Origin: a virus | Lineage: Duplodnaviria > Heunggongvirae > Uroviricota > Caudoviricetes | DNA: 64,000 nucleotides | Virus record (IMG/VR): IMGVR_UViG_3300037067_008064 | Location: 1-64,000 of that record | Strand: one strand, 5' to 3' | Part shown: one piece after another, positions 5,589 through 19,910 of the stretch | Position numbering within the stretch: the first letter of the stretch is position 1 | Layout of the letters: each line of letters starts with the position of its first letter | Position numbers and translations under genes: made by a program | Notes under the pieces: model-generated | Databases searched by the model: none | The model's input: only the letters and a program-made list of their open reading frames with translations | Told to the model about the DNA's origin: nothing

Positions 5589-5620
5589 ATATTTTAAAGA
5601 ACTTATTTTTTAATTGCAAC

Positions 5621-5656: not shown

Positions 5657-5855
5657 AATTTCTTTATTATTAAAGGTTTTATCCCTCAATTGTTTCTTCA
5701 TTAATCAGCGAGCATATTCTATTTCCTGTGCCATAATCTACGGCATCCCATTTTCTATTAATCATATGCAAATAAAATCGTGTCATCACTAATTTATTTA
5801 AAGTTTATTATTTTATTATATATCTACTAAAAAGTTTTAACTTATTTAGTTCTTG

Positions 5856-5944
5856 TTGCGGGTATCCGATTCGGACGGATGATGACATTTGAATGCCATT
5901 TGGGGTTATGAGTCCCATGAGTTAGTCCGCTACTCTAACCCGCG
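5856..5944 (-). tRNA. initiator-like tRNA-Met (anticodon CAT) with a ~20-nt extra hairpin in the variable region
   Basis: C1xA72 mismatch, GGG/CCC anticodon-stem pairs and a CTCATAA loop as in bacterial tRNA-fMet. An extra TGGCA-TTCAAA-TGTCA hairpin lies before the T-arm (ATCCG-TCCGAAT-CGGAT). Confidence 0.4.
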
Positions 5945-6855
5945 ATGTAGGAGCCCATCAGGAGCTCCGAAAGTCCATTAGCTTAATAGCTAAAATAGAG
6001 TGGTAAACCTTATGTAACAATATTGCAGTTACTATAGTGCCACTTTCCTATAACTTTGGACAATATTTTCAAATAACGTATTGCTAATATAAAACATTTT
6101 TTTCAATTTAAGACATCTTAAATGTTAAAGAATGTTAAAAGGCAATGTTCGGTTTGAGATAAAAGAAACTTCCTGTGTAATGCGCTACACTTAATTTTCT
6201 CAAAAAGAACGGTATAAATCTAGATTAACGCATGTTTATCTAATTTAATATCTATATTTGAATAAAGAAGTATTTAATTTTTTGCAACCATCCATATAGA
6301 CTAGCCTCGGTTGGTCATCCTTCCAATGTATGTTGCGCATCAGACTTGCTTAGACCTCAAGCATCTACCAGAATACCTTACGAGCTCGGTATAAAGGCTT
6401 GTTGAATTTCTCTTATTAGAAAATGGAATTTCACCATTTCCTCAATTGTTTCCTGGGTTTTCTGTACCCAACAATTTTTAGTTCATAATTCACAAAAAGA
6501 ACTTGTTTTTAATCCATAAATTACTTAACCTCTAGCACTGATTTCCATTATAAGATGTTATTATTCTTTATTCCTTGCCTAAGGGAATTGTTACACACAT
6601 TGACATGTGGTGAGTATAACTAAATAATACAAATCCCAACTTCGCGCCGGTTTAACCTTTAGTTGTTCATTTATGAACGCAATCCAATATCTCAAAGAAC
6701 ATCAGGTCTGAATAGACCGTACCGCCACTTACACTTAAGGTAGTAAGCACCTTTGATTTAAAAATTGTTATATGTAGCTCGTTACTTCTACCTTAGCTTC
6801 TTACCGTTTTCAGATAATACTATCCATTACTCTATGGAAATATAACAATATTTTG

Positions 6856-6928
6856 TAGCGGGAACGAGATTCGAACTCGTGACCTTCTGGTTATGAGCCA
6901 GGTGAGCTGGCCTCTGCTCCACCCCGCA
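6856..6928 (-). tRNA. initiator-like tRNA-Met (anticodon CAT)
   Basis: Collinear with E. coli tRNA-fMet (…GCGGGGTGGAGCAG…CTCATAA…AGGTC…TTCGAAT…CCCGC). Position 1/72 is mismatched (T/T). Confidence 0.5.
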
Positions 6929-7136
6929 ATGTATTGTAAAAATTATTCTTTTGGTCCCGCAAGCAACCATATAGATTAACACCTCGCAGTTAGAATCCAA
7001 TAATCTTTACAAATATTTTTAAAGAACTTAAATTTCAATTTTGAAGAATACTAAATTAATACAAATTTTTGAATCTAAAAAATTTTAATTGTTAATAAAT
7101 GTTAAAATTTATAACTTATTATTAATCAATTTTTAG

Positions 7137-7207
7137 AGCTTCATAAAGGACTCGAACCTTTACAACTACTTTACGAAAGTAGTATTCTTCCATTAAATTA
7201 AAGAAGC
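7137..7207 (-). tRNA. tRNA-Thr (anticodon CGT, tentative)
   Basis: T-arm AAAGGTTCGAGTCCTTT; anticodon arm CTACT-TTCGTAA-AGTAG; one acceptor mismatch. Confidence 0.35.
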
Positions 7208-7869
7208 TGGAATAATGCTGAGAAATCAAGAAGTGCAATTTTTTTGGGAGTTTTTATCTCCCTGTATACTGGATTTTATAGAAAACTTGTACGCAATATA
7301 GGCGCCAAGTTACCGTCACCAAGGTGTACGACCCTAAGGTCTATTAGTCCGTATGTATACGGTTCTAGTAATTCATATATTTAACGAAGTATCACTTACT
7401 TTTACTACAGTATTTTTTATTATTTTTATTCATATGAGAACCTTATGATGCGTGGTTTTACGAACTTTCATTCGGGATATTTTAAGATGTGTGCCAAATC
7501 TTTTATAGTATAGGATTTATGTGTTCGTCCTATCAGGAATCTATAAACTCAGATATTGCTACCTTTCCTCTTTGTTAGTACATGATCGAACTTATTGTTT
7601 GGTTTTCTATTGCTAGAAAGGTTTGTTTTACGAAGTACCGCATGCAATCGCTACATATGTTTTATTTTCAAAATTTAAAGAACTTGTGAATGTAATATAA
7701 CAAAAATATGAAAAGGTTTTAAAATTTTTAAGTTAAAGAATGTTAAAATATTTTCTTATTTTATTTATATATTCAGTTTGGTTTTTTAGTAATATATCAG
7801 TTAATGTTAAATAGGTGTTTTTAATTAGTTTAGTGAAGTCTGTTAAAAGATATCTAATAAATAAAAGGT

Positions 7870-8313
7870 TTACTTAATTAAATTTTTAACTTGTTCAGAT
7901 GTTATTCTAGTATCATCTTTTCCAACCCAAACTATTTCATCATAAATAATTGATTCAGATACAATACAATTAAAATAATATCCATTCCATTCACCAACAA
8001 AACATTTAGTTTCTTTTGGTATAATACATTTTACTATAACACCTTTTTTACCACATGATACAGTTCCAAATTCATCTATATTATTAATAATATCTAACAA
8101 ATCATTAAATGCATGAAATCCACTATTTATTTGTTTATTATCAATTTCAAATTCATCAAAATCAACATGATACAATTCTTTTAAATTTATTTTAAAACGA
8201 TTTTGATAAAACCCTTGATATTCATTGGTTACAGGGTCTTGTTCAATAAGTTTATAGACAATAATATCTTCTTTTGTAAGACTTGGTATTTTTTTATTAA
8301 TTGTTAAACACAT
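7870..8313 (-). CDS. hypothetical protein, Met-Cys-Leu paralog family A
   Basis: Internal start MCLTINKKIPSLTKEDIIVYKLI aligns with the MCL...DIKIYKVFV starts of 8373-8780 and 10489-10899. Shared GFHAF/GFHSF motif. The track start at 8337 is probably too far upstream. Confidence 0.4.
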   Translation of the reverse strand: MCLTINKKIPSLTKEDIIVYKLIEQDPVTNEYQGFYQNRFKINLKELYHVDFDEFEIDNKQINSGFHAFNDLLDIINNIDEFGTVSCGKKGVIVKCIIPKETKCFVGEWNGYYFNCIVSESIIYDEIVWVGKDDTRITSEQVKNLIK

Positions 8314-8372
8314 AATTTTAATATTTTTAATCTCCATACATCCAATTTAATTCATCTTCTAGTGTAATTTGA

Positions 8373-8780
8373 TTATTCATTTATTTTTGCTTTTATAATT
8401 ATTTGATTACTAACTATTTCGCTTCCTTGGCCTGAAATATAATTGCTACCTTTAGGAATAATACCACTATAAATACTTCTTACACTATTATTAGGCATTG
8501 ATTCTATAAGATATCTCGCACTTTTTATATCTGTAAAAGAATGGAACCCATTATTAATATGCCAATAAAATTTAAATCCATCTCTATATGGCTTTAAATC
8601 TCTTTTATTAAAAGAAGTTTCATTCAATTTATTTAATTCCCAATTATATGCATAACAGGGACTACATAACTGGTCGAGATCATTATATGAAACAAATACT
8701 TTGTATATTTTAATATCTTCTGTTGCTTTTTGAATAGGGTTTCTACCTTTAAATATATTTCTTTCTTTATCTAAACACAT
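8373..8780 (-). CDS. hypothetical protein, Met-Cys-Leu paralog family A
   Basis: MCLDKERNIFKGRNP...DIKIYKVFV...NNGFHSFTD; paralog of 10489-10899 and 7870-8313. Confidence 0.45.
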   Translation of the reverse strand: MCLDKERNIFKGRNPIQKATEDIKIYKVFVSYNDLDQLCSPCYAYNWELNKLNETSFNKRDLKPYRDGFKFYWHINNGFHSFTDIKSARYLIESMPNNSVRSIYSGIIPKGSNYISGQGSEIVSNQIIIKAKINE

Positions 8781-8784
8781 AATT

Positions 8785-9228
8785 TTAATAATTTATAGTC
8801 ATTTCTTTTCTTACTCTCATTAAGGTTATACCTAATTGGTTTCTTCCTTTAATATTTTTACATTCAGGACATGAACAATCACCCCAGTAATTATCATGCC
8901 AAGTATTACCTTCAACAAGTTCTTCTGTACCTGTTGCTAATAGTTTCTTTCTTAAATCAGGATTTTGAGCAAACTTAAGTTTAACAATCATATACATAAT
9001 TTGGTCTTTAACTTCAGTCCAATCTTCTCTTACTTTAATATGCTGCCCTAATCTTTTTGATTGCCCTGGAGTAGTTGCCAATCTTACCATATCATGGTCA
9101 GAAACATTTGAAGCTTTTGATGCTTGATAAAAATGTTCTGATGAAGGATATGTTCTTTTGCCATAAGTTATTGGGGCTAACCAAAAATTACTAAGGAATC
9201 TATATTGCCCATGAAAATCATTAATCAT
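8785..9228 (-). CDS. NADAR / YbiA-like (DUF1768) domain protein
   Basis: FLSNF, SSEHFYQASK and NTWHDNYWG blocks match the YbiA/NADAR fold, a family of ADP-ribose-processing N-glycosidases. Confidence 0.55.
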   Translation of the reverse strand: MINDFHGQYRFLSNFWLAPITYGKRTYPSSEHFYQASKASNVSDHDMVRLATTPGQSKRLGQHIKVREDWTEVKDQIMYMIVKLKFAQNPDLRKKLLATGTEELVEGNTWHDNYWGDCSCPECKNIKGRNQLGITLMRVRKEMTINY

Positions 9229-9246
9229 TTTATTTTATTTTAAATA

Positions 9247-10077
9247 TTAATCAATAAAAGCATTTGTTGAATTACCAACTTCAGTTGAAATATGAATTTC
9301 ATGCCAACTAGGTAAATTAATTGTGTGGTGATCTGGGTGTTTGACTTTACCACGACCAAGTACTGTTGCACCACGTACTTGTTGTGAAAAACCTAATCTT
9401 TCTTCTGGTGATAAACTTTTATATTCAGATTCTGTAATTATTCTATCTCGTTTAACATAAACAGTTTCACCACCAAAACGAACAACTTCTTCAACAACAT
9501 GTGATGTGCCTCCACGACGGCTAATTGGTTCATTTTTATGTATGATAGTACTTTTATCTTCTTGAAAATTTACGGGCACAAAAAACCATTCACCTTGACG
9601 GATAAATCCTTTGGTTTTTCTTTTTTTCCATTCTTTAGTTTTTACTCCTTGGCGAATCATTGAAATGTTTACAGCTTTTGGTCTAAGAAGTGCAAAAGCT
9701 TCACGAATATTTTTTGCCATAGTTACACCAGCAACAAACCAGTGCATTTCATCACGACCAAGTAAAAGTCTTTCATCAAAAGTTTCATTTGGTTTACCGC
9801 GTTTAAAAATTTGACGTCCTCCTACCCAAGAACTATCTATTCTTGGGGCACGAATAAAAATTAACATTTGACGAAGTTTTGGGTCAAAATCTAAAACTTG
9901 TAAAGTTATTTCTGATTCATTAATATCGGGGTGTATGGTCATTGTAAAATGTTCACCTTGTTTATCATTTGTAACATTCATACGAATAACCCCATCACGT
10001 GCTAATGAACTTCCTTTACGGATAGTAACACGTGCTCCAATTTTTTCAAAACTTTTTCTGAGATTATCTCTATTCAT
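9247..10077 (-). CDS. hypothetical protein (two H-x-T-x motifs; possible 2H-phosphoesterase-like)
   Basis: Long ORF between the NADAR and PTH2 genes. Contains EHFTMTIHP and HPDHHTINLP, two HxTx motifs; the function assignment is speculative. Confidence 0.45.
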   Translation of the reverse strand: MNRDNLRKSFEKIGARVTIRKGSSLARDGVIRMNVTNDKQGEHFTMTIHPDINESEITLQVLDFDPKLRQMLIFIRAPRIDSSWVGGRQIFKRGKPNETFDERLLLGRDEMHWFVAGVTMAKNIREAFALLRPKAVNISMIRQGVKTKEWKKRKTKGFIRQGEWFFVPVNFQEDKSTIIHKNEPISRRGGTSHVVEEVVRFGGETVYVKRDRIITESEYKSLSPEERLGFSQQVRGATVLGRGKVKHPDHHTINLPSWHEIHISTEVGNSTNAFID

Positions 10078-10078
10078 T

Positions 10079-10489
10079 TTATAATAATTTTAAATTTTTT
10101 GTTATTTCATCTATATCATTTGGATATGCGGGGCCTATTGCAATACATGTTTTAGTTGGTATTCCATGAAATTCTGTTAAACCAGAATCAACAATTAAAG
10201 AACATAATAAATGTTTTTCTTTAGCTTTATTATATAATTCATCTAATTCTTGTTCTGAATTACACCCAACTACAATTTTAACAAACCTTCCCTCAATCCA
10301 TTCTTTTAAATATGTTTCTTCTTTTTCAATTTCTAAAATCCAGTCTCTTCTATAACCAGAATATGTTAATTCAGAATTATATATTTTATCTAAAAGAACT
10401 TTCATAGAGGCATGTGCAGCTTGCGCGCACATTTTACCTTTACGCATATTAAGATCAGTCCTTATTACAATTACTTGTTTTGGTTCCAT
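10079..10489 (-). CDS. peptidyl-tRNA hydrolase, PTH2 family
   Basis: VIVIRTDLNMRKGKMCAQAAHAS is the PTH2 signature; typical length (~136 aa). Confidence 0.6.
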   Translation of the reverse strand: MEPKQVIVIRTDLNMRKGKMCAQAAHASMKVLLDKIYNSELTYSGYRRDWILEIEKEETYLKEWIEGRFVKIVVGCNSEQELDELYNKAKEKHLLCSLIVDSGLTEFHGIPTKTCIAIGPAYPNDIDEITKNLKLL

Positions 10490-10899
10490 TATATTGATTC
10501 TAAATCTATTTCTTTCAAAATAATAATTCTTTCAGAAACAATTTCACATGCTATATCATCACTTAATATATATTTAGTTCCATTTGGAACAACACATTCA
10601 AATATTGTACAGTGACAGTCCCTATGATCAATGGCATCTTCTATATTTAAGAAGGCGTGAAAACCTTGATTAATATACCATTGATTTTTATGTTTATAGT
10701 TATATACTGGCAATAAATCTAATTCACAAAAATTAGTTTCATATGTTTTATTAAATTCATATATAAAATTTCTATGAGGACTTACTATTGCGGTTTCTCC
10801 TTCATAATGAACTAAATATTTATATACTTTAATATCTTTTTTTGCTATTTTTACAGGGTTTTTACCCCATATAACATGCCTTTTTTTTGATAAACACAT
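10489..10899 (-). CDS. hypothetical protein, Met-Cys-Leu paralog family A
   Basis: MCLSKKRHVIWGKNP...DIKVYKYLV...NQGFHAFLN; start overlaps the PTH2 stop. Confidence 0.45.
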   Translation of the reverse strand: MCLSKKRHVIWGKNPVKIAKKDIKVYKYLVHYEGETAIVSPHRNFIYEFNKTYETNFCELDLLPVYNYKHKNQWYINQGFHAFLNIEDAIDHRDCHCTIFECVVPNGTKYILSDDIACEIVSERIIILKEIDLESI

Positions 10900-10905
10900 A
10901 ATTTG

Positions 10906-12093
10906 TTAATTTGTAATTTTTAATTTGTATTTGCAATATTCTACTTCTTTTGGGTCACCAGTACTTTTGCCTGGGTCATCTGATAATTTAACTGCCGGGA
11001 ACCATTCTCCATTAATAAAAACTTCAGAAATTTTAATTACCATATTTAATGGAGTAACCCCAACATCATTTGTAAAATTAGTTCCTATTCCAAAAGAACA
11101 ATTGATTTTATTTTCACAATATTTTTTTATGTTAACTGCTTTTTCTGGATTTAAATTATCACTAAAAATAATGGTTTTTGTTAATGGGTCTATTCCAAGC
11201 GATTTATAGTGTGTGATAGTTTTATCAGCAAATTCAATTGTATCACCACTATCTTGTCTTACACCATCAAATAATTTAACAAATTTTAAATTAAATGATT
11301 TATAAAATACATTACTTGTGTATGTATCTGATAAAGCAATACCAAGATCACCACCATATACTTTAATCCAATTATCAAGAGCTATTTCATTTGCTAAAGT
11401 ATATCCATATAAAGCGGCATGTATCATAAACCATAAATGTGCACATGTGCCTATTGGTTTTAAATCATATTTTTTAGCTAAAAATACATTACTTGTACCA
11501 ACAAAATTAGGTTGATAATTAGAAAAAATATGTACAATTCTATCATGATTTTCAAAAGAATATCTTCTCCTTTGCCCCATATCAACAAAGTTAACACCAT
11601 TATCTTTTAAAAATTTAGCTTTAGCCATATCTTTATTTAAAAGATTATGAAGATCAACTTGTTGTTCTGTCATTATAAAATATAATTCAGAAATTATTGA
11701 TAATAGAGGAACTTCCCACATCATGCATGTTGATAATGTACCTTCTAAAGTAATATCTAAATGTCCTCCTATTTGTTTTATTTTAATTTGACATGGATTA
11801 TATTTAAAAACTTTAAGAAAATTAACATATGTTTCTGGTAAATATTTAATTTTTTTAAGAAACAAATAATCAGTTTCCTTTAATGCTAATTCACTCATAT
11901 ATTGAACTTGTTTTCTTAATTCAATATCAAATTTCTTTGGAAATTCAATCTCTGATCTTGTAATAAATTTATATCTTACCTTAAGCTCCGGGAATATTTT
12001 TATTGTTGCCCATTGCATAGTAAATAAATATAAATCATTATCTAATATAGATTGTATAATTGGATTAATCATTTCCTTATGTATCAAAAACAT
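10906..12093 (-). CDS. nicotinate/nicotinamide phosphoribosyltransferase family protein (PncB/NadV-like)
   Basis: ~395 aa with a CSFGIGTNFTND block typical of the NAPRTase family. Sits next to pncA and nadE. Confidence 0.55.
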   Translation of the reverse strand: MFLIHKEMINPIIQSILDNDLYLFTMQWATIKIFPELKVRYKFITRSEIEFPKKFDIELRKQVQYMSELALKETDYLFLKKIKYLPETYVNFLKVFKYNPCQIKIKQIGGHLDITLEGTLSTCMMWEVPLLSIISELYFIMTEQQVDLHNLLNKDMAKAKFLKDNGVNFVDMGQRRRYSFENHDRIVHIFSNYQPNFVGTSNVFLAKKYDLKPIGTCAHLWFMIHAALYGYTLANEIALDNWIKVYGGDLGIALSDTYTSNVFYKSFNLKFVKLFDGVRQDSGDTIEFADKTITHYKSLGIDPLTKTIIFSDNLNPEKAVNIKKYCENKINCSFGIGTNFTNDVGVTPLNMVIKISEVFINGEWFPAVKLSDDPGKSTGDPKEVEYCKYKLKITN

Positions 12094-12101
12094 TTTATTA
12101 T

Positions 12102-12734
12102 TTAATCACCAAATTCACCAAAGGTAATTCTTTTTCTTTTAGATTCACTTATTTTTCTTTTAGTTTCTTCAGACAATTTAATAATTCCTTTAATATTCTT
12201 ATTCCAGGGAATTTGCCCTTGATGTGCCATGCTCATTTTTTTCTTGGTTTCTTTAGAATGTTTATGATTTTGTATATAAGCATTTTGTTTAAGAGAATTA
12301 ATTATTTTTTGTTTTGTACTTTCACTATGTGGGTTTTTCTTAATTCCTTTAGATGATAAGCTTATTTTTAATTTATGTTCTTTAGAAAGTTTTTTTCCTT
12401 TATGAGCTTCACTCATTTTCTTTTTAGTTTCTTCTGAAAAACATTCTATAATTCCTAATCCACCTTTCGGGCTTATATTATATCCATTTGGGCACAATGT
12501 ATTATATTGTTTAATATATTTTTCTTGTGCATTAAAAGCTTCTTCTTTAGTATTAAAATATTCTAGAATTTCTTTTTTAAAGTTTCTTTTTCCATATTTT
12601 TTAAATGCACTATTTAAAAGTGGCCGACCGCTTCCTATATATTTATCATTTAAATTATTGGTTGAATGTTCACCAACATATAATTTTTTATTAATAATAT
12701 TAATTGTTAAATAAACATAATGAAATTGTTTCAT
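12102..12734 (-). CDS. GIY-YIG homing endonuclease with NUMOD3-like C-terminal repeats
   Basis: MKQFHYVYLTINIINKKLYVGEHS GIY-YIG start; repeated ..SEETKKKMS..HKGKK.. units; late-promoter cassette upstream. Confidence 0.65.
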   Translation of the reverse strand: MKQFHYVYLTINIINKKLYVGEHSTNNLNDKYIGSGRPLLNSAFKKYGKRNFKKEILEYFNTKEEAFNAQEKYIKQYNTLCPNGYNISPKGGLGIIECFSEETKKKMSEAHKGKKLSKEHKLKISLSSKGIKKNPHSESTKQKIINSLKQNAYIQNHKHSKETKKKMSMAHQGQIPWNKNIKGIIKLSEETKRKISESKRKRITFGEFGD

Positions 12735-12736
12735 AA

Positions 12737-12758
12737 GTTTATTTTATATATTCATAAA
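12737..12758 (-). promoter_or_regulatory. late-promoter-like cassette
   Basis: Minus strand TTTATGAATATATAAAATAAAC-TT-ATG. Confidence 0.45.
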
Positions 12759-12760
12759 AA

Positions 12761-13447
12761 TTATAGAATATTCACCAAAGGTAATTCCCAACTCTCTACT
12801 ATATCCACATTGGCACCGAAGAATTCTTCAGTAACCTTTGGTAATTTATTCTTATAAATTTCTTTGCATGCATCTATAATTACGTATGTTGTATAACCGA
12901 GATTTGCAGATTGAATAGCAGTTTCTCTAATACAGTAATCAGTTGCTAAACCTGTTACAAACACTTCTGATACGCCAAACTTCTTCAGCAATTGATGTAA
13001 TCCAGTATGTTCATTTACTAATACAGGTGAATTATTTTTTTCATTTACAGTATGGCAATTAAAAAAAACACCATAAGATTCAAATTTTTCTTTGTTTCCT
13101 TTTTTAATTATATAAAGTTTTTTATTATTATCTTTAAAAAATTGCAGATTTAAATCTTCATGAAATTGGGCACCTGGAGTATTTTGTACACAATGGTCAG
13201 GCCATAATATATCTACGACTCCATCAATATTCATTGATTCAAAAGGCTTTTTTCCTTCATGATTTGAAGCAAACCATACATGATTTTGTGGGTGCCAATC
13301 CTTTGTAAATACAACTAAATCAAATTCAGGTATAAGTTTATTTATTAAAGGTATTATTGAGTTTGCACCCTTTACAGCCAATGACCCACCTTCACAAAAG
13401 TCATTTTGTACATCTACAACAAGTAAGGCTTTATTAATTTTTTTCAT
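12761..13447 (-). CDS. pncA: nicotinamidase/pyrazinamidase (isochorismatase fold)
   Basis: LLVVDVQNDFCEGG, lysine and ATDYCI give the Asp/Lys/Cys triad arrangement of PncA. Confidence 0.65.
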   Translation of the reverse strand: MKKINKALLVVDVQNDFCEGGSLAVKGANSIIPLINKLIPEFDLVVFTKDWHPQNHVWFASNHEGKKPFESMNIDGVVDILWPDHCVQNTPGAQFHEDLNLQFFKDNNKKLYIIKKGNKEKFESYGVFFNCHTVNEKNNSPVLVNEHTGLHQLLKKFGVSEVFVTGLATDYCIRETAIQSANLGYTTYVIIDACKEIYKNKLPKVTEEFFGANVDIVESWELPLVNIL

Positions 13448-13457
13448 AGTTTTATTT

Positions 13458-14276
13458 TTATAGTAAACAACATTTTGGTGCTACATTTCTTTTATGATCA
13501 GATTTACTAACCATTGTAGCAATTTTATCTAAATCATCATCTGATAAATTAAATTTCATTTTAAAATTGTTAAATGCTTTAACAATAGCAAAAACATTAG
13601 CATTATTTTTAACTATTAAATTATTAATTGCAAAATAGTTATCTAATATTTCATAACTATATCCAATTTCTTTTTCATCTGTTTGTTCATCATATAAACC
13701 AGCTGTCGGTGTTCTTCTGGCTATATGGTCTGGAAATCCATAACATTCACAAACTTGAAATACTTCACTTTTATATAAATCGGCAATAGGTTCAATATCT
13801 ACTCCTGAACCACCGTCACCACCTTTAGTAAAATAACCAATCTTATCTTCAATTAAATTAGTTGTACCGAGAACTAAATAATCAAGTTTTTCTGCTTTTG
13901 CTCTTAAAGCAGTCATTCGTATTCTTGCTTTAATATTAGGTATAGTTTTTAATTCTGTGGTTAAATCCATTTGTTCGACGAAATCATTTAAAGCATTACT
14001 TAAATATAATATATCATAGTTAATGTTTAAATAGTTTGCAACAAATTTAGCATCTTTAATATCTTCCGGCCTTTCATTTTCATTTGGTAAATACAATGGA
14101 AGTATTAATCCATATACATTATCAACTCCAACAGCTTCTACAGCTAACGCAGCAGTTGCTGTTGAATCTACACCACCAGATAATCCTATTACATATCCTT
14201 TAGCTCCAGAAGTTTTTAAATACTCTTTTAGCCAATCAACAATTTTTTGTATTTTATTTTCTGTTAAATTATTCAT
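13458..14276 (-). CDS. nadE: NH3-dependent NAD+ synthetase
   Basis: GYVIGLSGGVDS PP-loop. Start set at the ATG 14276 (MNNLTENK...); the track extension to 14333 begins with GTG. Confidence 0.7.
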   Translation of the reverse strand: MNNLTENKIQKIVDWLKEYLKTSGAKGYVIGLSGGVDSTATAALAVEAVGVDNVYGLILPLYLPNENERPEDIKDAKFVANYLNINYDILYLSNALNDFVEQMDLTTELKTIPNIKARIRMTALRAKAEKLDYLVLGTTNLIEDKIGYFTKGGDGGSGVDIEPIADLYKSEVFQVCECYGFPDHIARRTPTAGLYDEQTDEKEIGYSYEILDNYFAINNLIVKNNANVFAIVKAFNNFKMKFNLSDDDLDKIATMVSKSDHKRNVAPKCCLL

Positions 14277-14280
14277 TATT

Positions 14281-14448
14281 TTAAATATAATGTTTCTGAA
14301 ATCTTTCTTTATCTTCTTTTGATAACTTGCCACCTATCCAATCAAGAATACCTAATCTTTTATCTATCATCCATTGTTCTTTGCCTGATAACTTAAAAAA
14401 GTTTCTTGGCCTTTCAAAGGATTTTTCAAACATTTCTCTTTCTGTCAT
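14281..14448 (-). CDS. small hypothetical ORF (55 aa)
   Basis: ATG...TAA ORF (MTEREMFEKSF...) that fills the gap between nadE and the dCMP deaminase gene. Below the track threshold. Confidence 0.25.
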   Translation of the reverse strand: MTEREMFEKSFERPRNFFKLSGKEQWMIDKRLGILDWIGGKLSKEDKERFQKHYI

Positions 14449-14511
14449 TTGTTAATTGAATTTTATGATACAAATTTATCAATATATCTTTTATGTTTCA
14501 ATGATATTTTG

Positions 14512-14988
14512 TTAAAGATTGTTAAATTTTAAATTATTAACTTTAATAAATTCATTAAGTTCTTCAGATTCAACCTTTTCAATTTCAATAAACCCTAATA
14601 GCTCATTATTAATTGTAGCTTTATCATAATCAAATACATAATATATTTTCTTAATACCTGATTGAATAAGGTTTTTAAGACATTGATCGCATGGATGAAC
14701 TGTTGTATATAATTCACAACCATCAATACTAAGATCATTTTTAGCTGCAAATAATATTGCATTCATTTCTGCGTGTATTTCGTATTTATCTGAAAAAGCA
14801 TGATGTTTTTCTCTATCAAAGGTTTCTTTACGAAATATGGTATTGCAATTTGGAAATCCGGGCGCAGTACCGTTATAACCAGTTGATAATATTCTTTTGT
14901 CTTTTACAATAAGACATCCTACTTTATAAGAAACACATTTGGATTCTTGTGAAAGCAACAATGCTGTTTTTAAAAAAAATAATTTCAT
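14512..14988 (-). CDS. cd: dCMP deaminase (CMP/dCMP deaminase zinc-binding)
   Basis: HAEMNAI and PCDQC zinc-ligand motifs. Confidence 0.65.
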   Translation of the reverse strand: MKLFFLKTALLLSQESKCVSYKVGCLIVKDKRILSTGYNGTAPGFPNCNTIFRKETFDREKHHAFSDKYEIHAEMNAILFAAKNDLSIDGCELYTTVHPCDQCLKNLIQSGIKKIYYVFDYDKATINNELLGFIEIEKVESEELNEFIKVNNLKFNNL

Positions 14989-15149
14989 TAGTTTTCTATT
15001 TTAATTTTAATATCAAAGGTAATACTGTGACTCCATATTATATCTCCTATAGCTGCAACTATTGAAAGACCCTGTCCCCAAATTTCTGGATGACCTTCTA
15101 AATAAGCCATATAATCATTACCTCTTTTTTCTATTATTATTGTGTTCAT
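14988..15149 (-). CDS. small hypothetical ORF (~53 aa)
   Basis: MNTIIIEKRG... ORF. Its TAA stop shares one nucleotide with the cd start, and its ATG overlaps the upstream stop as ATGA, an arrangement typical of translational coupling. Confidence 0.3.
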   Translation of the reverse strand: MNTIIIEKRGNDYMAYLEGHPEIWGQGLSIVAAIGDIIWSHSITFDIKIKIEN

Positions 15150-15463
15150 TGTTTTATAAATAAATAATCATAATTATCTCTTATATTCTTTATATACCAA
15201 TAACTATCTTGTAAATCAATTGGTATATTAATTTTTTCTGAATATAATTCTTTTCTTGTAATTATAAACTTAAAATACCCGTAAAGTTTTATATATCTTA
15301 TATAAAGATTTAAATCATTTAATTGTTGAACGAATTCTTTTGTTATTAAACCTGGTTTATAGTTTAATATAATGTTGTTTATTTTTCCAATAATATCTTG
15401 TGATAACTGATATTTTTTAAACTCGTAAGTTTCTTTAACTGTCTTTTTATCGTAGCCTATCAT
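15146..15463 (-). CDS. hypothetical protein
   Basis: ORF in the operon context; no recognisable motif. Confidence 0.4.
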   Translation of the reverse strand: MIGYDKKTVKETYEFKKYQLSQDIIGKINNIILNYKPGLITKEFVQQLNDLNLYIRYIKLYGYFKFIITRKELYSEKINIPIDLQDSYWYIKNIRDNYDYLFIKQ

Positions 15464-16140
15464 GTTTGTTGTTCTATATAATCTTTACATTCTTTTATTG
15501 ATTTATATCTTCCTACTAAATCATTATCCTCTGCCCATTTAATCATAAAATAATGTTCAATATCTTTTTTAGTAATTACTTCAAGATAATCACTTTGTGG
15601 TAAATCAACATGATATAAACTATTAACTATAAATTTAGAGTGTTCTTCAATATTATATCTATGTTGATTATTAATAATTACATGATATAAAGAATTCATA
15701 ACATCATTTTCTTTATTAACTTCTAATGTAAACCATTCATTAATAAAATCTGTGTTACCATATCTGCCAAATTTATATTCATATTGTTTATCATATTTAA
15801 TAATTTTTTTATTAAAATCATAAACTTCCATTTCATTAACATCGTGTAATTTAGCCCAAAATCTACAACCTTGGTATTTACCATTTTTAACATAGAATGT
15901 TAATGAACTATAATCAGAATTACCTTTTCTAATATAAATTCTATCTACTTTAAGAATTGTATCTTGGCAAAAAAGACATTTAATTGATTCAAAATGAGAT
16001 TTGTCCCAATTAAATTTTTTGGATTCATCATCCACTAGTTTATCAATAAGACTCATATTACGATATTCGTAATATAAATCAAATGTCCAATCTTCTTTAA
16101 GTGTTATGATAGTTCCAATATCTGGAATAAACATTTTCAT
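15460..16140 (-). CDS. hypothetical protein
   Basis: ORF in the operon context; 4-nt overlaps with both neighbours. Confidence 0.45.
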   Translation of the reverse strand: MKMFIPDIGTIITLKEDWTFDLYYEYRNMSLIDKLVDDESKKFNWDKSHFESIKCLFCQDTILKVDRIYIRKGNSDYSSLTFYVKNGKYQGCRFWAKLHDVNEMEVYDFNKKIIKYDKQYEYKFGRYGNTDFINEWFTLEVNKENDVMNSLYHVIINNQHRYNIEEHSKFIVNSLYHVDLPQSDYLEVITKKDIEHYFMIKWAEDNDLVGRYKSIKECKDYIEQQT

Positions 16141-16601
16141 AATTCAACTTCTTTAACTGATTTAAATTCTGGTACTATATACAAATCAAAAGAATTGCCA
16201 TCTCCATTTAGCCAATCAAGATATCCTTCAAAAATTGGAGTTTCATCATTTGATATACCAACAATTTCAATAATTGTAAAATTTATGTTTTTGCTATAAC
16301 ATATGTTTTGTAAATTATCTAAAGCTTCTTTAACATCTTCTAGTGTTTTAAATAAACCGCTTTTACCATGATAATATGTTTTAAATGAAGCTACATCATT
16401 TCCATATACGTCAAACAATAAATTTTTAAATTCTTGATAAATATCTTTAGTTTCCATTGTGATATCATCATAAAGTTTTTCAACTTTACCAGGTTTATAT
16501 TCTTTTCCAGTAAATACTGAGAAATATTTATCATCTTTTTTATTTGCTATTTTGTAACCAATTACTTCTGTTAAATTGGTTGATTCGTTAATTTCACACA
16601 T
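16137..16601 (-). CDS. hypothetical protein, Met-Cys paralog family B
   Basis: MCEINESTNLTEVIGYKIANKKDDKYFSVFTGKEY; one of four paralogs sharing the MC(E/N)..E...GYKI..K..KY.S.F.GK start. Confidence 0.45.
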   Translation of the reverse strand: MCEINESTNLTEVIGYKIANKKDDKYFSVFTGKEYKPGKVEKLYDDITMETKDIYQEFKNLLFDVYGNDVASFKTYYHGKSGLFKTLEDVKEALDNLQNICYSKNINFTIIEIVGISNDETPIFEGYLDWLNGDGNSFDLYIVPEFKSVKEVEL

Positions 16602-16611
16602 AGTTTTTTAA

Positions 16612-17037
16612 TTATTTAAGTTCTTCAATTTTTTCTATAAATTCACCTGCAATTATTTCAGCATCTCCGTAATACCCTTCCATAAGATTTTTAGAAAGAG
16701 TCATTTTTACCACTGCTGTTTCTATTGGTAAAATTGGTTCTGAATATGATTTTTGATTTTTATCAATGCCATCTTTAAGGTCCCATGCATCTGTTGAATA
16801 TACAAATACAGCAGTTTTGCCGAAAAAGTTTTCTTTAAAACGCCCACCGGTTTTAGATAATATATTATTTGAAAAGACCATTGCTAATCTTTTTTGATAT
16901 TTTGGTCTTGGAACATTTACACTTTCAATATATTCAACCCCAGTTGCGGGACTAAAATATTTTTCATTTTGCTTAACAACTACTTTATAACCAGTATATT
17001 GTATATCTTTTGTAAAATCTGTTCTTAATTCACACAT
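16612..17037 (-). CDS. hypothetical protein, Met-Cys paralog family B
   Basis: MCELRTDFTKDIQYTGYKVVVKQNEKYFSPATGVEY. Confidence 0.45.
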   Translation of the reverse strand: MCELRTDFTKDIQYTGYKVVVKQNEKYFSPATGVEYIESVNVPRPKYQKRLAMVFSNNILSKTGGRFKENFFGKTAVFVYSTDAWDLKDGIDKNQKSYSEPILPIETAVVKMTLSKNLMEGYYGDAEIIAGEFIEKIEELK

Positions 17038-17042
17038 AGTTT

Positions 17043-17468
17043 TTAATTATTAATTTCTTCAATTTCTAAAACTTCTTCACCAGCATATACAATGTAATTA
17101 TTAAATCCTTCTACAATACGAGCAGAAGTACCTTTTATAATATTTCCAGTAATTTTAATTTTAATAATAATACAATCTTTCCATTGTAAATTACTTTCAT
17201 CTTTGTTTAAAACCTTTAATATTATTTGAGCTTCTTCTAATGACTTAAATACAGTAGTTTTTCCAATCATATTTGGATTATCCAGTTCATCATATACATA
17301 AAACCAATATTTAGTTTGGTCTTCAAAATTATAAAAAGGCATATCATATACTTTTCCAATTCCAATTTCTTTACCAGCAAATGGACTAAGATATTTATTT
17401 CCTTCTTTAAAAACAATTTTATAACCAACTATTTCTTGTATATTGGCTGGTTCTTTAACATTGCACAT
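17043..17468 (-). CDS. hypothetical protein, Met-Cys paralog family B
   Basis: MCNVKEPANIQEIVGYKIVFKEGNKYLSPFAGKEI. Confidence 0.45.
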   Translation of the reverse strand: MCNVKEPANIQEIVGYKIVFKEGNKYLSPFAGKEIGIGKVYDMPFYNFEDQTKYWFYVYDELDNPNMIGKTTVFKSLEEAQIILKVLNKDESNLQWKDCIIIKIKITGNIIKGTSARIVEGFNNYIVYAGEEVLEIEEINN

Positions 17469-17469
17469 T

Positions 17470-17778
17470 TTATTTATGTTTAATTATTACTTCTTCACTT
17501 ATTCTATAGGCTGTTACTGCTTCTTGTTTATAATGAGATATGGTAAAATCTATTATTTGATTTATAATTTCTCTTGTGCAAGCAATTCTAACAGGTATCA
17601 TTCTATCATTATATTCTTTGCCATCTGGCGCCACCCAGATTCCTTTAGAAGTTTTGAATATAGTTAATCCATTAGATAATGTTTTAACAAAACTGTCCCA
17701 CTTCTTGTGATGTTCTATTGGAAATTTCTCTCCATCATTAGAATACATAGGTACTAATATTTCCCAAAGATATATCAT
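17470..17778 (-). CDS. hypothetical protein
   Basis: ORF only. Confidence 0.35.
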   Translation of the reverse strand: MIYLWEILVPMYSNDGEKFPIEHHKKWDSFVKTLSNGLTIFKTSKGIWVAPDGKEYNDRMIPVRIACTREIINQIIDFTISHYKQEAVTAYRISEEVIIKHK

Positions 17779-18044
17779 TTTACAGGGTCATTTAACCATT
17801 GAATAAACCAAAATTGAACATCATATTTTTTATGACTGAATTTTATATTAAATTTTTTAGCTACAAAATATTGAAATACAATTATTTCTGCTATTGGGTC
17901 AAGTTGTATTTCTATTTGATAAATTCCTTGATTAGAAAGTGTATCAATTTGTTTTTCTATTTCTAGTATTTTTTCTGAGAATTCTTCTAAGCCTTTTTCA
18001 ACATGAAAATTATTAGCTTGAAGGTTTGCTATTATTGCGTTCAT
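17775..18044 (-). CDS. hypothetical protein
   Basis: ORF only. Confidence 0.35.
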   Translation of the reverse strand: MNAIIANLQANNFHVEKGLEEFSEKILEIEKQIDTLSNQGIYQIEIQLDPIAEIIVFQYFVAKKFNIKFSHKKYDVQFWFIQWLNDPVK

Positions 18045-18050
18045 ATATTT

Positions 18051-18497
18051 TTAATTATAAAGAAAATTTACTTCATTAAATTCAACAATTTCTTCACCCG
18101 CATATACAATGAAATAATTACAATCGGGATTCCAAGTAATGCTATCAGAAGTTCCTGTTAAAATAGGATTACCTTTAATTTTAATTTTAATAATTTTTAT
18201 ATAAGGTCTAAGACTATCATCTGGAGATAAAGTTTTTAATATACTCATTGCATCTTTAAAGTTTTTAAAAATTGTGGTTTTTCCAACTATACTAATATTA
18301 AAAAGTGCACTATCTCCATCGGTTCTATATTTATTAAAATAATTATGACTTATTTTTTCTTTAAATGGAAAGTCACTAACTTTGCCTATTTTAATAACTT
18401 TACCAGCAAAATAACTGATATATTGTTTATTAAATTTACAGACAATTTTATAACCTGTAATTTCAGTTAAAGTAGTTTCTTGATTTACATTACACAT
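18051..18497 (-). CDS. hypothetical protein, Met-Cys paralog family B
   Basis: Internal start MCNVNQETTLTEITGYKIVCKFNKQYISYFAGK matches the family; the track start at 18554 is probably an upstream artefact. Confidence 0.4.
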   Translation of the reverse strand: MCNVNQETTLTEITGYKIVCKFNKQYISYFAGKVIKIGKVSDFPFKEKISHNYFNKYRTDGDSALFNISIVGKTTIFKNFKDAMSILKTLSPDDSLRPYIKIIKIKIKGNPILTGTSDSITWNPDCNYFIVYAGEEIVEFNEVNFLYN

Positions 18498-18540
18498 ATT
18501 TTTTCTTATTAAGAATTGAGAATAAAATGTAAACATAACA

Positions 18541-18570
18541 AAAAAGTCCGACATCTGAGATACCGGACTT
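18541..18570 (-). terminator. intrinsic terminator after the secreted-protein gene
   Basis: Minus strand AGTCCG-loop-CGGACT followed by TTTTTT. Confidence 0.5.
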
Positions 18571-18587: not shown

Positions 18588-19052
18588 TTATTTAATATTA
18601 AATGAACAATTATAAGAAGAATTAGAATATTCATTTGGATTATCAAAAGTCATTTTATAATTATCAGGTCTAGTTAATATTACTTTCATTTTATTATATT
18701 CTATTTCATCTAAAACTACAACTCTTCCATTAGTAAACAAACATTTAATTGTTCTGTTTTGACTATTAGATGCTTTAATAGCAATTATACCTTCTTCTCC
18801 ACTAAAATTAGCTAAATATTTTCCATATTCTAAAACAGAAATATAAATTGTTTTTTCAGAAAAAACAAATTTGAATATACAAAATGCTTTAGTTTCAATA
18901 ATATTAGAAAATGTTCCATCAACTACCATTGTTTTATATGATTCATTGGTTGGATCTCCAAAATCATCAACAAAATATTTGTTAGACCATTGAGCATTTA
19001 ATGATGTTGTGACCATTATAAACATTAATGCAATAAAAATAAAAGATTTCAT
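18588..19052 (-). CDS. secreted hypothetical protein
   Basis: N-terminal signal-peptide-like MKSFIFIALMFIMVTTSLNAQ. Followed on the minus strand by a hairpin plus T-run terminator. Confidence 0.45.
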   Translation of the reverse strand: MKSFIFIALMFIMVTTSLNAQWSNKYFVDDFGDPTNESYKTMVVDGTFSNIIETKAFCIFKFVFSEKTIYISVLEYGKYLANFSGEEGIIAIKASNSQNRTIKCLFTNGRVVVLDEIEYNKMKVILTRPDNYKMTFDNPNEYSNSSYNCSFNIK

Positions 19053-19245
19053 AATTTAATTTTTTAAAGTTATAGATAAATGTAAATAAATTATAAATTG
19101 TAATTACATAAAAAATGTTAAGATTTGTTAAATGAATATATAAATATAAGGTGTTAGTTTTATATTGGCTTATAAAACAACATTAGGATAGAAAATGCTG
19201 TCCACCTTATAAATTATATATCTTTAAAATAATGGATAGAAATCT

Positions 19246-19857
19246 ATGAAACAATTTCACTACGTTTATATAACAACTAATTTAATAAATGGAAAACAAT
19301 ATGTCGGTGACCATTCAACAGATAATTTAGATGATGATTATTTAGGAAGCGGTAAATTAATTTCCAAAGCTATTCATAAATATGGTAAACATAATTTTAA
19401 GAAAGAAATATTAGAATCTTTTAATATTAAAGAAAAAGCATTTATTACACAAGAAAAATATATTCAGAAATTTAATACTTTAATTCCAAATGGATATAAT
19501 ATAAGTCCTAAAGGTGGACATAATGTTAAAAATAGTTTATCTGAAGAAACTAAAAGGAAAATTAAAATTGGTAATACTGGTAAAAAACTTTCGGATGAAC
19601 ATAAATTAAAATTAAGTATTTCACATAAAGGAAAAATCTTTTCAGAAGAACATAGATTAAAATTAAGTAATTCAAAAAAAGGAAAAATACTTTCTGCAGA
19701 ACATAAATTAAAAGTAAGTGAATCACGAAAAGGAATAATATTTTCAGAAGAACAAAAAAGAAAAATTAAAGAATATCATTTAGGTAAAAAACATTCAGAA
19801 GAAACTAAAACCAAAATAAGTAATTCACTTAAATTAAATAGATATCATTCAATATAA
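19246..19857 (+). CDS. GIY-YIG homing endonuclease with NUMOD3-like repeats
   Basis: MKQFHYVYITTNLINGKQYVGDHS; repeated KLS.EHKLK.S units. The only plus-strand gene in this region, bracketed by terminators. Confidence 0.65.
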   Translation: MKQFHYVYITTNLINGKQYVGDHSTDNLDDDYLGSGKLISKAIHKYGKHNFKKEILESFNIKEKAFITQEKYIQKFNTLIPNGYNISPKGGHNVKNSLSEETKRKIKIGNTGKKLSDEHKLKLSISHKGKIFSEEHRLKLSNSKKGKILSAEHKLKVSESRKGIIFSEEQKRKIKEYHLGKKHSEETKTKISNSLKLNRYHSI

Positions 19858-19860
19858 CAC

Positions 19861-19890
19861 AAAAAAAGGCTTAGAATTCTAAGCCTTTTA
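19861..19890. terminator. bidirectional intrinsic terminator
   Basis: AAAAAAAGGCTTAGAATTCTAAGCCTTTT sits between the convergent GIY-YIG (+) and Ro60-like (-) genes. Confidence 0.6.
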
Positions 19891-19910
19891 ATTTATAAAA
19901 TTTTAATTTA

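Follow-up and report, generated by a model that had tools for sequence, protein, structure and literature searches.

Phage proteins with a conserved Met-Cys N terminus and a predicted ADP-ribosyltransferase-like fold form tandem arrays

Proteins of the ADP-ribosyltransferase (ART) fold and NAD-derived molecules are central to phage–bacterium conflict. The beta1 position in ARTs carries His or Arg. As for a Cys at residue 2, we know of just two well-established explanations, Ntn hydrolases and SRAP/HMCES proteins. In SRAP/HMCES, once Met has been removed, Cys2 reacts through its thiol and its alpha-amine, both of which are required for function, with the aldehyde of a ring-opened ribose to give a thiazolidine (PMC10505908). 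The BC2332-like proteins are a family within the SCOP ADP-ribosylation superfamily (PMC3000352), and rIIB counteracts a defence system (RexAB) by an unknown mechanism (PMC10312443). Here we describe small phage proteins that carry an invariant Met-Cys on a predicted ART-like fold, a combination that suggests unusual chemistry in the phage–bacterium arms race.

The source of the seven genes described here is an uncultured giant phage. All seven ORFs listed in an earlier sequence-only reading of the window (the whole stretch of 64,000 nt analysed) were confirmed (Table 1); the proteins are 135–154 aa long. The three members of family A have MCL, DI.VYK and GFH[AS]F in common, and the four members of family B share MC, GYK, KY.S and GK[TS]. 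The name of B2 in the public record, 'ribosomal protein L10', is spurious.

Table 1. Paralogous genes and neighbouring NAD/NADAR genes in the window (coordinates of the seven paralogues include the stop codon)
Feature	Coordinates	Strand	Details
A1, family A paralogue	7870..8313	-	147 aa, MCLTINKK...; motifs VYK, GFHAF, CIIPKE, IVSES; phrog_13450 E 1.3e-12, match begins at profile position 1
A2, family A paralogue	8373..8780	-	ORF of 135 aa; phrog_13450 E 1.3e-11
NADAR-domain protein	8785..9228	-	Pfam PF08719, E 2.7e-32; directly upstream of A2
PTH2 peptidyl-tRNA hydrolase	10079..10489	-	Pfam PF01981, E 9.2e-34
A3, family A paralogue	10489..10899	-	136 aa; phrog_13450 E 4.7e-15; family A protein used for modelling
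NAD salvage block	10906..14333	-	context genes (next four rows)
NAPRTase	10906-12093	-	Pfam E 6e-61
GIY-YIG-like insert	12102-12734	-	assigned by sequence motif only
isochorismatase/PncA	12761-13447	-	Pfam E 2e-22
NAD synthase	13458-14333	-	Pfam E 8e-64
B1, family B paralogue	16137..16601	-	154 aa, MCEINES...GYKI...KYFS...GKSGLF; public call P0060; family B HMM E 2e-38
B2, family B paralogue	16612..17037	-	141 aa; nearest the family consensus among the four; family B HMM E 6.5e-49
B3, family B paralogue	17043..17468	-	141 aa; family B protein used for modelling
B4, family B paralogue	18051..18497	-	148 aa; public call P0059; 50% identical to B3

Met-Cys is the real start of the seven genes. 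Homologues begin at MC, the PHROG profile begins at residue 1 and public gene calls agree, so the question raised earlier, whether Cys2 is truly N-terminal, is answered in the affirmative. The start context is A-rich and lacks a Shine-Dalgarno sequence in all seven genes ('aaaa[ct]t ATGTG'), and the start regions of A1 and A2 are identical across 'ttaaaatt ATGTGTTTA'. Outside the seven, no MC start was found among 71 minus-strand ORFs of at least 80 aa. Met-Cys might still be thought an annotation coincidence, with true starts lying elsewhere or with ORFs that are not genes, given that two of the seven genes have an in-frame ATG upstream of the start: A1 (7870-8337) and B4 (18051-18554). The ATGs at 8337 and 18554 are probably not used; the independent public calls for both genes are the MC-start forms (P0002, 147 aa, and P0059). 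Against such an artefact, hundreds of homologues on unrelated contigs start exactly at MC, upstream extensions overlap neighbouring genes, the predicted models fold confidently, and both TGT and TGC occur as Cys2 codons. We regard this explanation as effectively refuted and give it next to no credence.

Homology of families A and B is well supported. An ORF of the Xanthomonas jumbo phage Xoo-sp13 (L008:2441-2860) matches both profiles, with 61 bits for family A and 34 bits for family B. Profile–profile comparison by hhalign aligned the two families over 115 columns (probability 75.6%, E 2.4e-5); the best PDB match of the AlphaFold models of A and B is the same protein, BC2332; and on a second contig, of 288 kb, both families occur within 2.6 kb. 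The 'two families' of the sequence-only reading are thus two diverged branches, but of a single superfamily, and its question about remote homology receives a positive answer. The superfamily is phage-borne and largely undescribed, with single-domain members of ∼130–155 aa. A1–A3 and the Xoo-sp13 copies match phrog_13450 (PHROGs, function unknown) from the first residue; this entry is without annotation and has no match to family B. For family B no match was found in any library searched (Pfam, NCBIfam, PADLOC and PHROGs).

At a threshold of E ≤ 1e-3 family B comprises 949 representatives (clusters at 50% identity), of which 740 remain at E ≤ 1e-10; in nearly all of them the alignment begins at residue 1. 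The Cys2 that had been reported as invariant in the seven proteins proved to be a property of the families at large: M-C occupies profile positions 1–2 in 152 of the 152 family B sequences analysed, and 52 of 57 family A sequences start with MC. The exceptions include a natural variant in family A, P0028, with Ser replacing Cys; a degenerate paralogue (L005:12601) starts MY... and lacks the Cys. N-terminal extensions present in database entries look like miscalled starts, as in P0064, whose extension overlaps the upstream gene; no real N-terminal fusion was seen among >200 sequences. The alignments indicate that Cys2 is under extreme purifying selection.

Tandem arrays of diverged copies, taken earlier as typical of arms-race loci, recur on other phage contigs with two to seven copies each. 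Xoo-sp13 has seven tandem copies, contig L030 has three, and five further contigs (L002, L003, L005, L006 and L031) have two or three copies each. On L031 the tandem pair is flanked on one side by the gene for a microbial PARG and on the other by an overlapping Tpt1 gene, with an RNA ligase nearby. Neighbours that process ADP-ribose were found in two of ∼16 contigs examined, namely NADAR in the window and PARG with Tpt1 on L031; most copies are surrounded by anonymous small genes.

In the window, Pfam matches confirmed the content of the NAD/NADAR island (NADAR, PTH2, NAPRTase, isochorismatase/PncA and NAD synthase). The seven genes had been described as flanking this island; the island is real, but the family A genes are embedded inside the operon, whose order is PncB-A3-PTH2-276aa-NADAR-A2-A1, with 1-nt overlaps or gaps of 4–6 nt. 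NADAR is a family of enzymes that remove ADP-ribose, and A2 starts 4 nt beyond the NADAR stop codon. The start of A3 lies 6 nt past the end of the NAPRTase gene; its stop codon and the start of PTH2 have 1 nt in common, and PTH2 is apparently translationally coupled to A3.

A minimal ART-like fold is well supported for both branches by the predicted structures. AlphaFold models of the two families had pLDDT of 85.8 and 81.4; in the family A model, confidence is low over residues 1–10 (mean pLDDT 56). After BC2332, structure matches were almost solely to proteins of the ART fold (Tpt1/KptA, Tne2, Arr, AcrIF11, RES and DarT), and the split beta-sheet topology of the ART core is present in the predicted folds, with variable insertions between core strands. 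The earlier statement that no known domain could be recognised holds for sequence, as no profile match to ART families appeared in the Pfam, NCBIfam, PADLOC and PDB searches, but not at the level of fold. None of the canonical catalytic triads (H-Y-[EDQ], R-S-E or H-H-h on beta1, beta2 and beta5) is present: with residues assigned to strands by secondary-structure order, not by superposition, an invariant Lys falls on beta1 and a His (family A) or Thr (family B) on beta2, and the beta5 position has no invariant Glu, Asp or Gln. The conserved polar residues (C2, K17, S28, Y35, [RK]70, T71, Y115 and E138 in family B; C2, D22, K27, H81, K106 and S122 in family A) look like a putative active or binding site.

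We propose, at about even confidence, that these proteins are rapidly diversifying phage effectors acting on a ligand of NAD/ADP-ribose type, with the free N-terminal Cys serving as reactive group. Because methionine aminopeptidase removes Met before a small second residue, Cys2 would be exposed as the mature N terminus. The ART triad would then be replaced by the N-terminal Cys, the beta1 Lys and the beta2 His (A) or Thr (B). The model of family B has an N-terminal strand with beta1 coming directly after it; if strands 2–7 and 12–22 pair as a hairpin, an assumption taken solely from the secondary-structure register, Cys2 would face the invariant Lys17 at the cleft that is the NAD+ site in ARTs. 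The candidate ligand or substrate is a ribose-containing molecule of NAD+/ADP-ribose type. The 1,2-aminothiol of Cys2 may trap a ribose aldehyde in a thiazolidine, in the manner of SRAP/HMCES at abasic sites; candidate sources of the aldehyde are free or nascent ADP-ribose, ring-opened NAD-derived immune signals and abasic or ADP-ribosylated nucleic acid. Alternatively, Cys2 might work as an N-terminal nucleophile whose own alpha-amine supplies the base. The most specific version, a new class of N-terminal-Cys proteins on the ART fold that covalently capture ribose aldehydes and whose phage arrays counter different NAD/ADP-ribose defences, is speculative and we consider it rather improbable. 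The location of Cys2 at the cleft, the type of ligand, the chemistry and the anti-defence role are inferences; a part in host takeover or counter-defence is suggested because the genes are accessory, have multiplied by tandem duplication in large phages and, outside the core, diverge rapidly.

Other readings of the same data deserve weighing. The proteins could be conventional NAD+-consuming ARTs or NADases of non-standard catalytic constellation that modify a host target (protein, RNA or DNA) by ADP-ribosylation; Cys2 would then be an ordinary active-site or auto-modification residue, its N-terminal place incidental to a minimal domain. The structural matches include small enzymes (Arr, TreTu and Tne2) and the anti-CRISPR AcrIF11, of 113–140 aa, the adjacent NADAR (window) and PARG (L031) resemble writer–eraser gene pairs, and the variable insertions may be target-recognition loops. 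However, the residues at beta5 and beta1 are not those of a conventional ART, and neither the fixed position of Cys at residue 2 nor the lack of N-terminal fusions is explained, which leaves this possibility unlikely in our estimate. Equally doubtful is the idea of non-catalytic pseudo-ARTs, which would bind or soak up NAD-derived immune signals stoichiometrically or inhibit host defence proteins, with Cys2 needed for folding, dimerisation or contact with a ligand. The missing catalytic residues agree with it, as would the many diverged copies in a genome if each bound a ligand or target of its own, and weak structural relatives exist in rIIB, an anti-defence protein without known enzymology. 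Yet about 10 polar residues are (nearly) invariant at roughly 25% identity, a pattern more typical of catalysis; binding needs no strictly conserved reactive N-terminal Cys, and the natural Cys-to-Ser variant P0028 retains a nucleophile.

The sequence-only reading favoured enzymes of the Ntn-hydrolase/class-II glutamine-amidotransferase type, with Cys1 as nucleophile on an amide substrate. A Cys directly after Met, found in all seven proteins and in nearly all homologues, agrees with this assignment, the same operon holds amide-handling NAD synthase and nicotinamidase, and Ser for Cys in one homologue would be possible among Ntn families. The assignment nevertheless did not survive comparison with that class: GATase_2/6/7 and other Ntn families were absent from Pfam/NCBIfam matches at E ≤ 1, and the predicted folds match the ART fold, not the four-layer alpha-beta-beta-alpha architecture of Ntn domains, which have ∼200 aa or more compared with 135–154 aa here. 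We consider it very improbable. A gamma-glutamyltransferase match in the Pfam/NCBIfam searches was a chance fragment (11 bits versus a cut-off of 990 bits).

What sets the superfamily apart is its pairing of a predicted ART fold with an invariant N-terminal Cys in a large family (∼950 clusters in one branch), the other branch having been just a PHROG of unknown function. Should the Cys prove to be catalytic or adduct-forming, an old scaffold would carry new chemistry, and the proteins would probably be a new phage counter-defence family. The proposal is directly testable because the cultured Xanthomonas phage Xoo-sp13 carries seven tandem copies.

Among known systems, the closest fold is that of the BC2332-like (PDB 2aua)/Tpt1/KptA-type branch, SCOP d.166.1, whose members have no detectable sequence similarity to the phage proteins. 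Compared with this branch, the phage proteins have Lys for His at beta1, and family B has Thr for the second His; they are also much shorter than BC2332 (210 aa). We know of no counterpart of the invariant N-terminal Cys in that branch, nor of a function for BC2332. AcrIF11, Arr, Tne2, TreTu/TreX, RES/ParT and DarT, unlike the phage family, have recognisable residues of the H-Y-E or R-S-E type and lack a conserved N-terminal Cys; to our knowledge, large tandem arrays of paralogues do not occur among them. SRAP proteins (HMCES/YedK) have in common with the phage family an invariant Cys2 as the mature N terminus, assuming that Met is removed in the latter. The phage proteins show neither the SRAP fold nor membership in the sequence family (Pfam SRAP). 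As to the Glu and His partners of Cys2 in SRAP, family A has, at the sequence level, a His that is invariant and a Glu that is mostly conserved (EIVSN), whereas family B has no conserved His.

A weak structural link leads to the C-terminal domain of T4 rIIB and to Pfam DUF7666, which we treat as a lead and not as established homology. In Foldseek searches against viral models several rIIB and DUF7666 proteins followed the true members (E ∼1e-2, TM 0.54–0.56), and both family A members and rIIB C-domains gave sub-threshold matches to DUF7666. The Pfam gathering score of DUF7666 was not reached (best family A E 0.0045; A3 17.3 bits versus a cut-off of 27), and hhalign against an alignment of 13 rIIB-domain sequences was not significant (E 0.05, probability 1%). 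The rIIB and DUF7666 sequences appear to share with the phage family the motif order [YW]K ... G[FL]H ... hydrophobic-x-P; rIIB differs in its N-terminal HTH, and its domain is internal or C-terminal and therefore without an N-terminal Cys. If the link is real, the classic rII anti-exclusion function would join the NAD/ADP-ribose world, and this possible kinship could provide the first biochemical entry to a genetic system that is 70 years old.

At 22-38% G+C the window is AT-rich; nearly every gene in it lies on the minus strand. An ORF scan recovered, where the sequence-only reading had put them, all seven small ORFs starting with Met-Cys, three of family A and four of family B. Two of the seven have an upstream in-frame ATG (extended forms 7870-8337 and 18051-18554). 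The true start was placed at Met-Cys, in agreement with the sequence-only reading, on four lines of evidence. The start codons of all seven genes lie in a shared A-rich context, 'aaaa[ct]t ATGTG', that has no Shine-Dalgarno sequence; the start regions of A1 and A2 are identical across 'ttaaaatt ATGTGTTTA'. Public gene calls on the same sequences are the Met-Cys forms (P0002, 147 aa, and P0059, 148 aa), the PHROG profile matching family A starts at residue 1, and the starts of homologues agree. Of the window's 71 minus-strand ORFs with 80 aa or more, none besides the seven was seen to start with Met-Cys. Both TGT and TGC encode Cys2, so the constraint acts on the amino acid; this codon usage, together with conservation across homologues at ~25% identity, ruled out a nucleotide-level cause for ATGTG.

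Aligned with each other, the three family A proteins share the motifs MCL, DI.VYK, GFH[AS]F, IP and IVS, and the four family B proteins MC, GYK, KY.S, GK[TS]..F and G..Y/S. The family B protein encoded at 16612-17037 (P0061) is named 'ribosomal protein L10' in the public JGI record, a name without support.

A word-indexed search brought up 57 proteins related to family A and 12 related to family B. Searched exhaustively, the family B profile matched 949 representatives of 50%-identity clusters at E<=1e-3, of which 740 also passed E<=1e-10; almost all of them are 128-165 aa long and align from the first residue. Conservation in family B was determined on 152 sequences, made up of the best hits and the relatives found before. 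Of these, 147 start with Met-Cys, and the other five carry it at the aligned position behind a short extension. The N-terminal extension of P0064, a family B protein, runs into the upstream gene, so its start is miscalled. M1, C2 and K17 are invariant in this set, and G15, S28, G32, Y35, G69, T71, G113, Y115 and G130 are conserved in at least 90%. Met-Cys starts 52 of the 57 family A relatives; of the other five, P0028 has Ser at the Cys position, P0003 is fragmentary, and the N-termini of P0034, P0050 and P0051 differ. Invariant residues of family A are K27, H81, P105 and S122, with C2, D22, I23, Y53, G79 and K106 at 90% or more.

The phage of the window is a myovirus-type jumbo phage; its 316-kb source contig carries genes for tail sheath, clamp loader, thymidylate synthase and exonuclease, and similarity searches against cultured phages found no cultured relative. 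The tRNA arrays contain duplicates for Asp, Asn, Gln, Leu, Gly, Arg, Met and Thr. In transcription order, the operon holding family A reads NAD synthase, isochorismatase/PncA, GIY-YIG-like, NAPRTase, A3, PTH2, 276-aa orphan, NADAR, A2 and A1, with gaps of 4-6 nt. Thus the NAD/NADAR island that both families were said to flank is real, but A1-A3 are embedded in it; further upstream on that strand come the family B genes, with two small orphans between B4 and B3-B2-B1. PTH2 is the archaeal/eukaryotic type of peptidyl-tRNA hydrolase. The 276-aa orphan has no match in Pfam, PHROG or PADLOC, and its position between NADAR and PTH2 is very suggestive. The two GIY-YIG-like paralogues, which share MKQFHYVY[LI]T.N...YVG.HS and repeated K-rich C-terminal modules, look like homing endonucleases by this sequence motif. 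The 154-aa ORF has no family match in Pfam or PHROG, and its hydrophobic N-terminus, MKSFIFIALMFIMVTTSLNAQ, looks like a signal peptide. Elsewhere, a 136-kb contig (L001) encodes at 18712-20421 a 569-aa protein with precomputed Pfam matches to DUF2828 and DUF7788, ~8 kb from a family A homologue.

Table. Genes of the window, followed by multiple copies of the two families in other phage contigs and records
Feature	Position	Strand	Remark
A1, family A	7870-8313	minus	
A2, family A	8373-8780	minus	
A3, family A	10489-10899	minus	
B1, family B	16137-16601	minus	
B2, family B	16612-17037	minus	
B3, family B	17043-17468	minus	
B4, family B	18051-18497	minus	
31 tRNA genes, two arrays	803-7207 and 23949-26763	minus	most amino acids covered
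276-aa orphan ORF	9247-10077	minus	between NADAR and PTH2, same operon
PTH2-type peptidyl-tRNA hydrolase	10079-10489	minus	start overlaps A3 stop by 1 nt
GIY-YIG-like gene	12102-12734	minus	inserted between NAPRTase and PncA genes
154-aa ORF	18588-19052	minus	directly upstream of B4; hydrophobic N-terminus
GIY-YIG-like paralogue	19246-19857	plus	sequence motif
567-aa protein	19911-21614	minus	matches phrog_850 'RNA-binding protein'
Xanthomonas phage Xoo-sp13 (L008)	genome end, MN047793, 303266-309023		seven tandem copies in 3.9 kb, all seven with Met-Cys start
L030			three copies
L031			two tandem copies
L006			two tandem copies
L003			two copies
L005			two copies and one degenerate copy without Cys
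L002			two family B copies and one family A copy

Most copies in other phages have small anonymous genes as neighbours, on large phage contigs, and all-against-all BLAST found no neighbour family shared across the first eight loci; the IMG/VR search and the metagenome scan found only five loci each. In the L031 contig (43.6 kb, phage-like), the two tandem family A genes follow a microbial-type PARG gene, ~0.5 kb downstream of it, and overlap a Tpt1 (PTS_2-RNA) gene by 8 nt; an RNA ligase gene is located ~3.4 kb upstream. RNA ligase, PARG, the two Met-Cys genes and Tpt1 form one co-oriented block (2171-8024) that looks like an RNA-repair/ADP-ribose module. An ADP-ribose-related context was seen in two of ~16 contigs, which is suggestive of a link to ADP-ribose, not proof. 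A family B paralogue in L005 (12601-13137) starts MY..., lacks the Cys and matches the profile (29 bits) over its first two-thirds only; it may be a decaying copy. At least one of the seven Xoo-sp13 copies is mis-annotated: CDS Xoosp13_398 spans only L008:2639-2863, versus 2441-2863 for the full ORF. For at least two further copies (L008:1939-2436 and 3613-4044) the record contains no corresponding CDS. A pattern scan of bacterial and archaeal genomes, with one genome per bacterial species, found no family B relative, and on this ground the superfamily looks phage-restricted.

Whether families A and B are remote homologues had been left as a check by the sequence-only reading; the answer is yes. 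Profile-profile comparison was weak in a first run (probability 28%); with the 152-sequence family B alignment it reached a probability of 75.6% and E 2.4e-5 over 115 columns, beginning at M1-C2. The sole match in a cultured phage, found with the family B consensus as query, is in Xanthomonas jumbo phage Xoo-sp13. Its ORF at L008:2441-2860, present in the record only as a truncated CDS, bridges the families, scoring 61 bits against the family A profile and 34 bits against that of family B; in the alignment the His of G-I-H pairs with the Thr of G-R-T. On a 288-kb contig, a single family A gene and two of family B share a stretch of 2.6 kb, and the models of A3 and B3 have an identical top PDB match. 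The pattern common to both families comprises C2, an aromatic-Lys on the first long strand, S-P-x5-Y 11-13 residues further on, and then, on the core strand that follows, G-x-[H/T], which leads into a helix with Ala at its end; three or four strands complete the pattern. We consider it highly probable that A and B form one superfamily with an ART-like fold.

The fold was predicted with AlphaFold2 fed with the family alignments. The models of A3 (pLDDT 85.8, pTM 0.82) and B3 (pLDDT 81.4, pTM 0.78) are confident predictions. Their top PDB match, BC2332 (2aua), is followed by Tne2, Tpt1/KptA, TreX/TreTu, PARP catalytic domains, Arr and AcrIF11, and further by pertussis-like ArtA, RES/ParT/MbcT, diphtheria toxin, DarT and CC0527. 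The SCOP ADP-ribosylation superfamily includes the BC2332-like, Tpt1/KptA and CC0527-like families (PMC3000352). BC2332 is without known function; toxin-like NAD binding was suggested from structural templates (PMC3024214). No sequence-level link from A or B to any ART family appeared in Pfam, NCBIfam, PADLOC or PDB-sequence profile searches.

ART clades are named by their beta1, beta2 and beta5 residues: H-H-h, H-Y-[EDQ] and R-S-E (PMC9503650). We mapped these positions onto the two families by strand order. At the predicted beta1, an invariant Lys follows an aromatic residue; the beta1 His or Arg of ARTs is likewise preceded by an aromatic residue. On predicted beta2, family A carries His-Ser (GFHS) and family B carries Thr (G[RK]T), and by strand order the family alignments have no invariant acidic residue before beta5. 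From these residues, both families would appear to lack the canonical ART triad. Family A is probably closest to the H-H-h type, a clade credited with RNA repair, small-molecule modification and making soluble ADP-ribose derivatives (PMC9503650). In the family B model, strand 2-7 runs directly into strand 12-22; if the two form a hairpin, Cys2 would lie opposite Lys17 on the same sheet face, at the cleft. The corresponding cleft in ARTs binds NAD+. The family A model defines residues 1-10 poorly, at a mean pLDDT of 56.

A possible kinship of family A with rIIB is a weak link, a lead only. In Foldseek searches of predicted viral structures with the family A model, the family itself came first, with eight true members (E 1e-7 to 9e-9), ahead of rIIB proteins of several phages (E ~1e-2, TM 0.54-0.56) and, after these, proteins named 'DUF7666 domain-containing'. 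Sub-threshold DUF7666 matches occur in six of 52 family A members (best E 0.0045) and three of 10 rIIB C-domains (best 5.8e-4). The C-terminal 120 residues of T4 rIIB show the same motif order as family A (AWK, GLH, VHP-DVVSIP). Family A and B profiles gave no significant match to T4 rIIB alone, nor did profile-profile comparison with a 13-sequence rIIB-domain alignment (E 0.05); in Pfam, T4 rIIB matches an N-terminal HTH only and not DUF7666. The rIIB C-terminal domain is present in 2815 phage records. rIIB is required to overcome RexAB, is toxic on expression and triggers a gasdermin defence system (PMC10312443). Literature searches found neither a published connection of rIIB with the ART fold nor a description of DUF7666.

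We give about even chances to the reading that the superfamily consists of effectors aimed at NAD+/ADP-ribose or ribose in which Cys2 is the reactive group. It is favoured because a fold of the NAD/ADP-ribose-binding type, with strongly conserved but non-canonical polar residues, is combined with a Cys fixed at residue 2. Conventional ART or NADase activity would agree with the same fold; the residues at the catalytic positions point away from it. Another explanation is a non-catalytic binder. A Cys that merely lined a pocket would not have to be N-terminal, and no genuine N-terminal fusion was seen among >200 sequences; a requirement for the free alpha-amine beside the Cys2 thiol would account for both. 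The proposal that the N-terminal Cys marks Ntn hydrolases of the class-II amidotransferase kind failed at the fold, the models being ART-like and not Ntn-like; Ntn-like amidase chemistry on an ART-like scaffold is the form of it that competes with NAD+/ADP-ribose- or ribose-directed effectors.

Other candidates were dropped: a Hint/mini-intein domain, suggested by the Cys-Leu start, ~135 aa length, mid-protein His and '..SN' near the end, because of the ART-like fold and the lack of exteins; a lipoprotein Cys, for want of signal peptide and lipobox; a metal or Fe-S site, as no Cys or His other than Cys2 is conserved in family B; and a papain-like Cys-His dyad, as the His is absent in family B. 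The arms-race idea of the sequence-only reading holds in so far as tandem expansion, fast divergence beyond the core and variable insertions between core strands would be in keeping with arms-race effectors; an anti-defence role is putative.

Effectors directed at NAD+/ADP-ribose or ribose are also favoured because ADP-ribose and abasic nucleic acid both display an open-ring aldehyde and an ART-like cleft would suit holding one. To our knowledge, a required N-terminal Cys has few established precedents (Ntn hydrolases and SRAP/HMCES). In SRAP/HMCES, once Met has been removed, the aldehyde of a ring-opened abasic ribose is attacked by the N-terminal amine, and ring closure through the thiol of Cys2 yields a thiazolidine (PMC10505908). 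Cys2 might capture an aldehyde in the same way, although we regard this specific mechanism as rather unlikely.

Nucleotide and protein searches of cultured phages gave no similarity for the region, A3 or a 1020-aa neighbour. With the seven proteins and typical family B members, Pfam, NCBIfam and PADLOC gave only the sub-threshold DUF7666 matches of family A, and PDB-sequence profile searches with three alignments gave chance matches only. Family A is represented in the libraries only by a function-unknown PHROG; family B had no PHROG match and is absent from every library searched. A literature search found no published ART-fold family with an invariant N-terminal Cys. The chance of new chemistry is realistic, if unproven. 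Among known systems, the superfamily is best filed as a variant of the known ART fold.
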